Assembly: GCA_046350815.1 (NCBI GenBank)
Contig: JAXLZO010000001.1
Span: 570,001 to 602,000 of the forward strand
Direction: 5' to 3'
Length of the DNA: 32,000 nucleotides
Source: Candidatus Saccharimonadota bacterium
GTDB taxonomy: Bacteria; Patescibacteriota; Gracilibacteria; BD1-5; UBA2023
The translations under genes were made by a program, and so were the position numbers. This document shows positions 12,888 through 13,181 of this stretch, piece after piece (positions within the stretch are counted from its first letter, which is position 1; each line of letters begins with the position of its first letter). Under the pieces are notes generated by a model. That model saw only the letters and a list, made by a program, of their open reading frames with translations. It ran no database searches and was not told the origin of the DNA.

Positions 12888-12915
12888 TTGTATTTTTTAG
12901 GGAACTGATTATAAT
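12888..12915 (+). promoter_or_regulatory. promoter of small RNA, module 1
   Basis: TTGTAT-N16-TATAAT. Confidence 0.55.
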
Positions 12916-12921
12916 ACCTCT

Positions 12922-12999
12922 GATCTCGAAAGAGACCAGCCTAAAACTTAGGGAAAATCTCCCGAATAATAAAGCCCCTGCAGGGGGCTTTATTATTTT
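12922..12999 (+). ncRNA. candidate antisense/antitoxin small RNA, module 1 (~79 nt)
   Basis: A GAAA-capped 5' hairpin at 12922-12937 is followed by DRa at 12938-12963. The RNA ends in the hairpin AGCCCC-tgca-GGGGCT plus a T-run. Two paralogues exist in this window. Confidence 0.5.
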
Positions 13000-13097
13000 C
13001 ATCTGAGTTCGCGGATAAGCATCTTTTGAGCTCTTCCATGTACCCGACGGATCTCATACCCACGAAGGGCGAAGAGATATTTGAGGAACTTCCTCAT
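12993..13097 (-). CDS. 34-codon basic peptide MRKFLKYLFALRGYEIRRVHGRAQKMLIRELRGK (candidate type I toxin), module 1
   Basis: ATG at 13097, TAA at 12993-12995, and the penultimate codon is TGA. Paralogous ORFs lie at 15115..15222 and 19827..19922. A dedicated promoter and a structured leader sit upstream. Confidence 0.5.
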
Positions 13098-13153
13098 AGC
13101 CTAGAACTTAGGAGATAAAAATCTCCCACTCCCAAAGGAATGGGAGCGAGCCG

Positions 13154-13181
13154 ATTGTATGGAAAGACAGGAGGAAGACAA
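13154..13181 (-). promoter_or_regulatory. promoter of the small-ORF mRNA, module 1
   Basis: Minus strand reads TTGTCT-N16-TACAAT. The same arrangement is conserved in modules 2 and 3. Confidence 0.5.

Follow-up and report, generated by a model that had tools for sequence, protein, structure and literature searches.

The 32,000-nt stretch of contig JAXLZO010000001.1 that was analysed here (hereafter, the window) contains, at positions 12888-13181, a short intergenic module that is probably one copy of a small, multi-copy cassette working like the par type I toxin-antitoxin (TA) locus. Two convergent promoters would drive two RNAs that end at one bidirectional terminator, a small RNA (sRNA) of about 78 nt and a longer mRNA (about 184 nt) that would encode a peptide of 34 residues, very basic and predicted to be helical throughout. 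Because the middle part of the sRNA is a direct repeat of the mRNA leader, it could pair in trans with the stretch from -1 to -15 beside the AUG, and in some copies also with the AUG itself, and the complementary terminator hairpins would offer a further contact between the two RNAs. Such pairing would block the initiation of translation and would perhaps also alter the stability of the mRNA. The mRNA on its own would carry a 5'-terminal hairpin, likely a stabiliser, and hairpins that occlude the start region. We infer that both RNAs are made, that translation is repressed when they pair and that an unchecked peptide would be harmful. The architecture of the module, its conservation, the coding constraint on its open reading frame (ORF) and the copy-specific co-evolution of its pairing blocks were all apparent in silico, and it is from this architecture and from the population behaviour of the module that we infer the label toxin-antitoxin. 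A preliminary description of the locus had proposed a par-like type I TA candidate; the parts of that proposal that can be tested computationally held, and they were strengthened by the conservation of ten copies, the purifying selection on the ORF and the co-variation of the direct repeats.

A re-reading of the sequence found every coordinate given for module 1 in that description to be exact. On the plus strand, the sRNA promoter (12888-12915) consists of TTGTAT (12888-12893), a 16-nt spacer and TATAAT (12910-12915). It precedes the predicted antitoxin-like sRNA (12922-12999), which is composed of a GAAA-capped 5' hairpin (GATCTCGAAAGAGACC, 12922-12937), the unpaired direct repeat DRa (AGCCTAAAACTTAGGGAAAATCTCCC, 12938-12963) with the recognition blocks AGCCTA-A-AACTTAGG and AAAATCTCCC, and a GC hairpin with a T-run (12971-12999) that would end the sRNA in a U-run. 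On the minus strand, the promoter of the peptide mRNA (13154-13181; TTGTCT at 13181-13176, a 16-nt spacer and TACAAT at 13159-13154), which was also returned by a promoter scan, would yield the predicted mRNA (12964-13147). Its leader begins with the 5'-terminal hairpin (CUCCCAUUCCUUUGGGAGUGGGAG, 13123-13146) and includes the sRNA target DRb (13098-13127), which adjoins the AUG at position -1, extends up to the 3' arm of the 5' hairpin and is overlapped by a second leader hairpin, GGAGAU/AUCUCC (13111-13126). The ORF of 34 codons and a stop (12993-13097, minus strand; ATG at 13097, TAA at 12995-12993) starts with a hairpin directly 3' of the AUG (UGAGGAAGUUCCUCA, 13082-13096) and encodes the peptide MRKFLKYLFALRGYEIRRVHGRAQKMLIRELRGK; the checked translation gave MRKFLKYLFALRGYEIRRVHGRAQKMLIRELR(TGA=G)K, with one in-frame TGA read as glycine. 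The stop codon abuts the shared bidirectional intrinsic terminator (12964-12999, both strands), in which a palindromic GC stem stands between an A-run and a T-run. DRb had been described as a near copy of DRa, and their alignment agrees with this, with 24 identical bases in blocks of 6, 8 and 10. The arrangement of module 1 is far beyond chance.

Both predicted RNAs fold more stably than dinucleotide-shuffled sequences, with a minimum free energy (MFE) of -30.7 kcal/mol (z = -5.1) for the sRNA and -75.8 kcal/mol (z = -6.6) for the mRNA. The fold of the mRNA includes the 5'-terminal hairpin, the hairpin right after the AUG and the same terminator as in the sRNA. Its second leader hairpin pairs the two target blocks of the sRNA with each other. 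In the MFE structure of the sRNA, DRa is unpaired apart from one 4-bp hairpin. The central hairpin of module 1 was not listed by the terminator scan; its terminator character was judged from the folds, RNAalifold and the pair counts. Cofolding of the full RNAs, which the preliminary description had suggested as a check, gave a net gain of about -22 kcal/mol for module 1 after the cost of unfolding (about -20 to -24 kcal/mol overall).

Three paralogous modules are present within 7 kb of the window: W1, which is module 1 itself, W2 (15009-15305) and W3 (19699-20007). W2 comprises a predicted sRNA at 15043-15118 on the plus strand and an ORF at 15115-15222 on the minus strand (peptide MRNFLRYLIAILGYEISIRKMHGRIRKKLLRDLRK), and W3 an sRNA at 19733-19816 on the plus strand and an ORF at 19827-19922 on the minus strand (peptide MKFLKEFWF(G)RIFFRYEFVLILTRKNNRDKR). 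Seven further copies were found on public contigs, from metagenomes or metagenome-assembled genomes (MAGs), of close relatives (two on L010 and one each on L006, L022, L023, L024 and L025), so that ten modules, eight of them non-redundant, were compared. A metagenome scan with an invariant 19-mer of the leader (AATGGGAGCGAGCCGATTG) found relatives in the ERZ7245xx assemblies; at least eight matches were listed, four of them real (L006, L008, L010 and L011) and four due to chance, and L006, L008 and L011 carry an orthologue of W3 that adjoins uvrC at about 85% nucleotide identity. With the W2 peptide as the query, a full HMMER scan over 1.84 billion proteins returned four public ORFs that end in the peptide (their last 35 residues), and a complete module was found on each of their contigs (L022, L023, L024 and L025, the last from the NCBI MAG GCA_020632315.1). 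When the GTDB representatives were scanned for the same 19-mer, the matches listed included only three, all due to chance (Acidobacteriota, Treponema), and a degenerate hairpin pattern gave a single match among those listed for viral contigs, which was unrelated and high in GC. Among the matches listed in the genome, metagenome, viral and protein scans, the copies are confined to one narrow Gracilibacteria clade. One relative in which uvrC adjoins the pilin gene (L012) has no module.

The elements that would be required for the expression of both RNAs are conserved among these copies. The minus-strand promoter (TTGTnT with TACAAT or TGCAAT) is present at a constant 16-nt spacing in 10/10 copies. 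The plus-strand promoter (TTG(T/C)(A/T)(T/C/A) with TA(T/C/G)AAT) is kept, hexamers and spacing alike, in the nine copies whose contig includes it; in L023, the contig breaks off there and shows only the end of the plus-strand -10 box. The spacers are variable in sequence and have zero indels. Both promoters of the preliminary description are found at their places and in the relatives. In all ten copies, the predicted sRNA opens with a GNRA-capped 5' hairpin, continues unpaired and ends in a terminator, and the 5' hairpin shows a compensatory change from U-A to C-G. In the consensus structure of the ten sRNAs, 92% of the cells are paired and the covariation score is 0.264, compared with 0.116 in shuffles (0/500 as high). 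Compensatory changes were also found in 5/12 pairs of the terminator stem, which, together with the presence of this 3' hairpin in both predicted RNAs, bears out the earlier claim of a shared bidirectional terminator. Three predicted structures of the mRNA are conserved, namely the 5'-terminal hairpin, the second leader hairpin and the post-AUG hairpin. The first of these is nearly invariant in the ten copies and, with the promoter, forms the most conserved stretch of the module; the last is kept in the eight family-A copies (pairs at columns 57-71), and W3 and L006 have a different hairpin there.

The stretch from the mRNA 5' hairpin to the -10 box (CCCACTCCC..GAATGGGAGCGAGCCGATTGTAT, 13123-13159) is almost invariant in copies that are otherwise 50-70% identical, and it survives in remnants of the module. 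This is more than a stabiliser seems to need, and the stretch may be a recognition site for a protein or an RNase, or an attenuator. The leader hairpin with its T-run was considered as a terminator or attenuator, as a scan flags it in all three copies of the window; the T-run is not conserved (AGGTTTAGTT in W2), so the hairpin is more likely a 5' stabiliser than either of these. The terminator hairpin is exactly inverted between the orthologues W3 (19789-19807) and L006 (within 1037-1073), GACCCACTACGAATGGGTC versus GACCCATTCGTAGTGGGTC. As the stem is palindromic, only the 7-nt loop flips, and a YUNR-type UUCG lies in the mRNA loop of W3 and in the sRNA loop of L006.

The strongest argument for antisense control comes from the pairing of the two RNAs. 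The middle part of the W1 sRNA forms a duplex of -35.5 kcal/mol with its own leader (z = -6.3), compared with -14.1 +/- 3.4 kcal/mol for shuffled sRNAs (0/500 as good). The cognate duplexes of the copies range from -35 to -39 kcal/mol (z = -5.6 to -7.4); these z-scores were obtained with mononucleotide shuffles, a slightly weaker null than the dinucleotide shuffles that were used for the single-RNA folds. In a 10x10 matrix of duplex energies, the cognate mean was -37.1 kcal/mol and the non-cognate mean was -25.0 kcal/mol, and the cognate partner ranked first in all of the columns and in 9/10 rows, the exception being an orthologous pair. For the eight non-redundant modules, the true assignment of sRNAs to mRNAs was the unique optimum of 40,320. 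These results corroborate the antisense pairing over the translation start that had been proposed from module 1. The 12 nt of the leader that abut the AUG share only 3-7/12 positions between copies (11/12 in the orthologous pair W2/L010a); the same 12 nt match the cognate sRNA at 8-12/12 positions and non-cognate sRNAs at 5-9/12. In several copies, the complementarity of the sRNA reaches the AUG itself. Moreover, in W3/L006 and W2/L024, which are otherwise roughly 85-97% identical orthologues, both blocks have changed in concert. Since even such near-identical orthologues changed both, the sequence comparison indicates that the recognition blocks evolve fast and together, as is expected if paralogues must avoid cross-talk. 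The preliminary description had regarded homologous loci that fail to preserve the ORF frame or the DRa/DRb match as a refutation; the ten copies keep both, with co-variation copy by copy.

All ten copies have an ORF of 31-35 codons that starts with ATG and has its stop directly at the terminator. Seven homologues of equal length, with an amino-acid identity down to about 55%, have zero indels in 105 nt, unlike the adjacent leader, which is full of them. Among these seven, pairwise pN/pS is 0.09-0.62 and the variable columns are distributed over the codon positions as 14/8/19. The ORFs of W1 and W2 differ by an in-frame 6-nt indel. In W3 and L006, an in-frame TGA occurs at codon 10 and is followed by 21 more open codons up to the terminator, which fits genetic code 25. 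These patterns indicate purifying selection on the ORF, and we conclude from them that the peptide is translated. Public gene calls miss these ORFs or fuse them to upstream non-coding sequence. In the public proteins P0146-P0149 (contigs L024, L022, L023 and L025), the 35-residue peptide is fused to spurious N-terminal extensions of 11-196 residues, which come from reading leader, promoter and hairpin-repeat sequence as coding. A longer real protein (the public calls have 46-231 aa) was considered and rejected, as the upstream extensions cross the promoter and the hairpin repeats and are out of frame elsewhere (e.g., in W2). An exact look-up of six of the peptide sequences found none in a collection of 15 billion proteins.

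The peptide is strongly basic (pI about 11.5). AlphaFold2, run on the single sequence of the W2 paralogue, predicted one continuous helix over residues 2-34 (pLDDT 83), and the hydrophobic moment is 0.64-0.69 in the W1 and W2 peptides. The peptide is thus predicted to be a cationic amphipathic helix without a transmembrane (TM) segment, in line with the earlier description of it as basic and amphipathic rather than a classic TM toxin, to which its low hydropathy, the helix prediction and the lack of a match to Fst or another family also point. For such a peptide, a membrane-spanning pore would be a less likely cause of any toxicity than a perturbation of the membrane surface or the binding of nucleic acid or the ribosome.

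In the sister lineages L014, L018/L019 and L020/L021, whose pilins are 50-65% identical to that of the window, a remnant of module 1 lies at the same site between the RNase_T and pilin genes (L014 961-1095, L018 5613-5725 and L020 9502-9610, syntenic with 12880-13300 of the window). What is left in the remnants is the 5' hairpin of the sRNA, a single repeat block and a portion of the leader hairpin; a terminator, an ORF and functional-looking promoters are missing. The stretch that equals 12936-13118 of the window, beginning with DRa and ending inside DRb, is absent from L014; recombination of one direct repeat with the other would delete about this much. The segment that contains W3 (19546-20131, 587 bp) is bounded by direct copies of the hairpin AGATCCCCGCCTCCGCGAGGATGACA (19520-19545 and 20132-20157), and L020 has a single copy of this hairpin (3389-3424) and no W3 segment; this would be explained by an insertion that duplicated its target or, alternatively, by a deletion between the hairpin repeats. 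Additionally, a W2-like module was found together with about 80 nt of its adjacent hairpins in an unrelated context in L010. Judged by these comparisons, the modules are multi-copy, narrowly distributed and dispensable, which is typical of type I TA systems.

The setting of the modules is rich in repeats. The long intergenic regions at 13190-13700, 15310-16100, 19200-19690, 20020-20260 and 22220-22480 are filled with families of short hairpin repeats, which have 8-9-bp stems and the common frame TGTCAT(T)CC...GG(A)ATC(T). They include AGATCCCCGCCTCCGCGAGGATGACA (6 copies), GTCATTCCCGnnnnGnnGGGAATC, CTGAATCAAGTTCAGGATGACA, CCCCTCAACGAGGGGGAA and TCCCCTCTTGAGGGGTGGC, and the same hairpins occur in L014, L018 and L020. 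One hairpin, TGTCATTCCCGCGCAGGCGGGAATCTAT (16014-16041), is identical at 26/28 positions to the Neisseria NTS consensus CGTCATTCCCGCGMAVGCGGGAATCYRG (PMC11893778), and the strict pattern of the Ssn-related motif (SRM) has two matches (15910 and 16014), compared with 0.06 expected in shuffles. The likeness to the Neisseria NTS/dRS3 repeats and SRM concerns the setting of the module and not the module itself, and most of the local hairpin families have no more than the common frame and fail the strict SRM pattern. An ssnA-like GIY-YIG gene was not found in the window, where only UvrC matched the motif. By analogy, the hairpin setting resembles the dRS3/NTS mosaics of Neisseria, and it may explain the gain and loss of the cassettes.

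Several observations weigh against a par-like TA function. The transcript ends and the promoters are consensus-level predictions. In the Rfam search of 12700-20400, there was no hit at the gathering score, and at E<=1 only FtrB (twice) and Atu_C9 were returned, both weak and unrelated, so that neither a type I antitoxin RNA nor another sRNA family was recovered for the sRNA. The searches of the peptides against Pfam, NCBIfam (E<=10), PADLOC, PHROGs and the PDB sequences yielded no meaningful match and no toxin family, the sole sub-threshold match being Herpes_capsid (16.5 bits, below the cut-off of 25). The maximum Kyte-Doolittle hydropathy of the peptides over 19 residues is -0.15 to 0.85, far below the 1.35-2.5 of the classical type I toxins used for comparison; the longest uncharged run is at most 8 residues and there is no TM segment. 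The YUNR U-turn in the loop of the mRNA terminator is inconsistent, being present in W3, L010a and L010b (UUCG or UUAG) and absent from W1, W2 and L006. The conserved RNA hairpin over the first five codons could explain part of the conservation of the 5' part of the ORF, and the direct repeats, which lie about 160 nt apart, could have been homogenised by gene conversion instead of by selection for pairing. There is also no Shine-Dalgarno sequence upstream of the AUG of the peptide, which carries little weight either way because bona fide local genes such as the pilin gene at 13820 lack one too.

These points leave room for readings in which the peptide is not a toxin of the cell that makes it. 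The module could be an antisense-regulated gene of a small, non-toxic protein, whose basic helix binds nucleic acid or the ribosome or modulates a membrane protein and whose synthesis is tuned by the sRNA. A hydrophilic, basic peptide without a TM segment, folded as one long predicted helix and kept by purifying selection, would suit such a role. However, the paralogues are multiple and diverge fast, each with a private sRNA specificity; the module sits at different genomic sites in close relatives, is lost from the syntenic site in sister lineages and has a very narrow phylogenetic range among the matches listed. Multiplicity, mobility, loss and a narrow range are more in keeping with a dispensable, selfish module than with a housekeeping factor, and the architecture follows the par design in every part that can be checked save the type of peptide and the inconsistent U-turn motif. 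We therefore consider a non-toxic regulated protein unlikely. The amphipathicity of the helix recalls instead a leaderless bacteriocin or a phenol-soluble modulin, that is, an exported or cytolytic cationic peptide that an episymbiotic cell of the Candidate Phyla Radiation (CPR) would use against its host or competitors and that the sRNA would keep off. The hydrophobic moment of the W1 and W2 peptides, the length of 31-35 residues without a signal peptide and the finding that some type I toxins of the Fst family (PepA1 = SprA1) also act on other cells (PMC7472228, PMC8309996) agree with such a weapon. It is nevertheless quite improbable, as no transporter, immunity or processing genes adjoin any of the copies, the genomic contexts vary between them, and the occlusion of a start codon by a convergent sRNA that shares the terminator is a hallmark of type I TA systems and not a feature of bacteriocin loci.

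A more radical possibility is that the module is a non-coding unit of the intergenic mosaic, like those between the dRS3/NTS hairpins in the NIMEs of Neisseria, and that its ORF, promoters and complementarity are incidental. The location of the modules inside arrays of NTS/SRM-like hairpin repeats, the direct hairpin copies that bound the W3 segment, which is absent in L020 with its single copy, and the occurrence of a module with its adjacent hairpins in different contexts are all what such a unit would show. This reading is nonetheless highly improbable, even more so than a secreted weapon: pN/pS is below 1, the third codon position is the most variable and there are zero indels in 105 nt across seven diverged copies; the ATG is conserved and the stop is always at the terminator; the promoter hexamers are conserved at a fixed spacing despite the variable spacers; and within each copy the two repeat blocks vary together. 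A passive repeat would not be expected to show any of these features. Moreover, a TA cassette, which is the reading that we prefer, could also be mobile within a hairpin mosaic.

The window is chromosomal DNA with 40% G+C. SecA (9451-12444, minus strand), UvrC (20285-22216, plus strand), RuvB, MiaA and FtsH reach full length only when TGA is translated, which supports the reading of TGA as glycine (code 25). Read in code 25, UvrC aligns to its counterparts in Candidatus Gracilibacteria over 97-99% of its length at an identity of at most 49% and, on this basis, the host is assigned to a poorly sampled Gracilibacteria-type lineage. Module 1 lies inside a 940-bp intergenic region, with the gene of an RNase_T-family exonuclease (12272-12877, plus strand) on one side and that of a type IV secretion system (T4SS)-type pilin (13820-14230, plus strand; PF18895, and PF18895/PF04956 in homologues) on the other. 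The exonuclease gene ends 11 nt upstream of the -35 box of the sRNA with no terminator in between (12875-12999). Transcription of the exonuclease gene probably continues through the entire sRNA sequence as far as the shared terminator, and the 3' UTR of its mRNA would then be antitoxin-like. The pilin gene is followed by the genes of two multi-pass membrane proteins without a Pfam match, of 204 aa (14302-14916, minus strand) and 801 aa (16688-19093, minus strand), which are interleaved with the modules; together, the three may form a CPR-specific cluster for a pilus or DNA uptake. A gene of an IS1595-family transposase (ISXO2-like, PF12762) with in-frame TGA codons lies at 26393-27085 on the minus strand. 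In L020 and L006, the gene order is the 789/801-aa protein, uvrC, a META protein, ruvB, (an HNH-like gene), RNase_T and the pilin. The order in the window (12272-25821) differs, with RNase_T and the pilin before the 801-aa protein and uvrC, and with secA abutting RNase_T. The breakpoints between these orders coincide with the intergenic regions that are rich in hairpins and modules.

Type I TA systems are hard to find by homology. A 2025 paper (PMC12390103) gives Proteobacteria, Firmicutes and Tenericutes as the only groups from which they were known until then and proposes a candidate in Cyanobacteria; our literature search found no paper that links them to Gracilibacteria or Patescibacteria. 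The par-like, antisense-controlled peptide cassette described here is real and well supported; its design is known, and the type of peptide, the RNA sequences and the phylum are new. More tentatively, the modules may represent an unrecognised family of type I TA systems, the first in the CPR and in a code-25 organism, with a soluble, highly basic, single-helix peptide as the toxin and control by a convergent sRNA of the par style; rapid co-evolution of the two blocks of this sRNA with the leader would insulate the paralogues, and the cassettes would be moved or lost by recombination within NTS/SRM-like hairpin mosaics. If so, the design of a convergent sRNA and direct repeats arose or spread far outside the Gram-positive bacteria, and a non-hydrophobic basic helix can fill the toxin slot. 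CPR genomes, which are short of known regulators, would then use sRNA-based control of translation, a claim that would be accompanied by ten natural "compensatory mutants", in a host that is ultra-small, uses code 25 and is probably episymbiotic. The copy-specific recognition blocks also offer a natural experiment on how cross-talk is avoided among paralogous sRNA-mRNA pairs.

Compared with the generic traits of type I TA systems, the size of the peptide (31-35 aa, where a small protein of <60 aa is expected) and the predicted base-pairing of the module fit, as does its multi-copy, narrowly distributed and dispensable nature; the hydrophobic TM domain does not. In most families of type I toxins, the peptide is hydrophobic and has a putative alpha-helical TM domain, and the cytosolic exceptions, SymE and RalR, are larger enzymes (PMC8309996). 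The multi-copy systems AapA/IsoA of Helicobacter, Ibs/Sib, Ldr/Rdl and Zor/Orz resemble the module in their narrow distribution, in the cognate sRNA that is specific to each copy, in the heavily folded mRNA that hides the start site and in a peptide of about 30 residues with basic residues; AapA1 has 30 residues and basic ends (PMC5416894, PMC8309996). They differ in that their antisense RNA is fully overlapping or divergent and their toxins are inserted into the membrane. In SprA1/SprA1AS (PepA1) of Staphylococcus aureus, a convergent antitoxin overlaps the mRNA at the 3' end only and a non-overlapping 5' domain pairs with the start region of the toxin (PMC8594479). In both Fst/RNAII and SprA1/SprA1as, the antitoxin overlaps the toxin mRNA only at the 3' end and yet acts elsewhere (PMC8594479). 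The layout of the module falls into the same class. PepA1, however, is a membrane-spanning peptide of the Fst family with a PXXXGC motif (PMC8309996), and it has no sequence relationship with the peptide of the module.

The closest counterpart is par of the Enterococcus faecalis plasmid pAD1, with its chromosomal homologues (Fst RNA I / RNA II; Fst/Ldr superfamily), which has convergent promoters, a bidirectional terminator and complementary loops (PMC7472228). Its sRNA has about 65-80 nt, its mRNA has about 190-230 nt and its peptide has about 33 residues and a charged C-terminus; its direct repeats DRa and DRb flank the initiation site and are transcribed in opposite directions, so that the sRNA pairs with the translation initiation region of the toxin (PMC7472228). 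The toxin mRNA forms intramolecular structures that hide its 5' end (5'-UH) and its ribosome binding region (5'-SL), and the YUNR U-turn motif is absent from some of the Fst homologues (PMC7472228). The module shares with par the convergent promoters, the shared terminator, the direct repeats, the sizes of the RNAs, the structures at the 5' end of the mRNA, which are analogous and not homologous in sequence, and the charged C-terminus of the peptide. It differs in its host, a code-25 Gracilibacteria lineage and not a member of the Firmicutes, and in its peptide, which has no hydrophobic TM helix, no P/D/S/TXXXG(C) motif, no Trp between a TM helix and the tail, no Pro and no match to the Pfam Fst family; no part of the module has a recognisable sequence homology to par. 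Because the TM helix and the motifs are absent and no protein family or Rfam antitoxin was matched, the sequence comparison places the module outside the par/Fst family and makes it par-like only in the function of its architecture. By analogy with par, it most likely works in the same manner, with the sRNA binding the leader and the start codon of the mRNA and blocking its translation.

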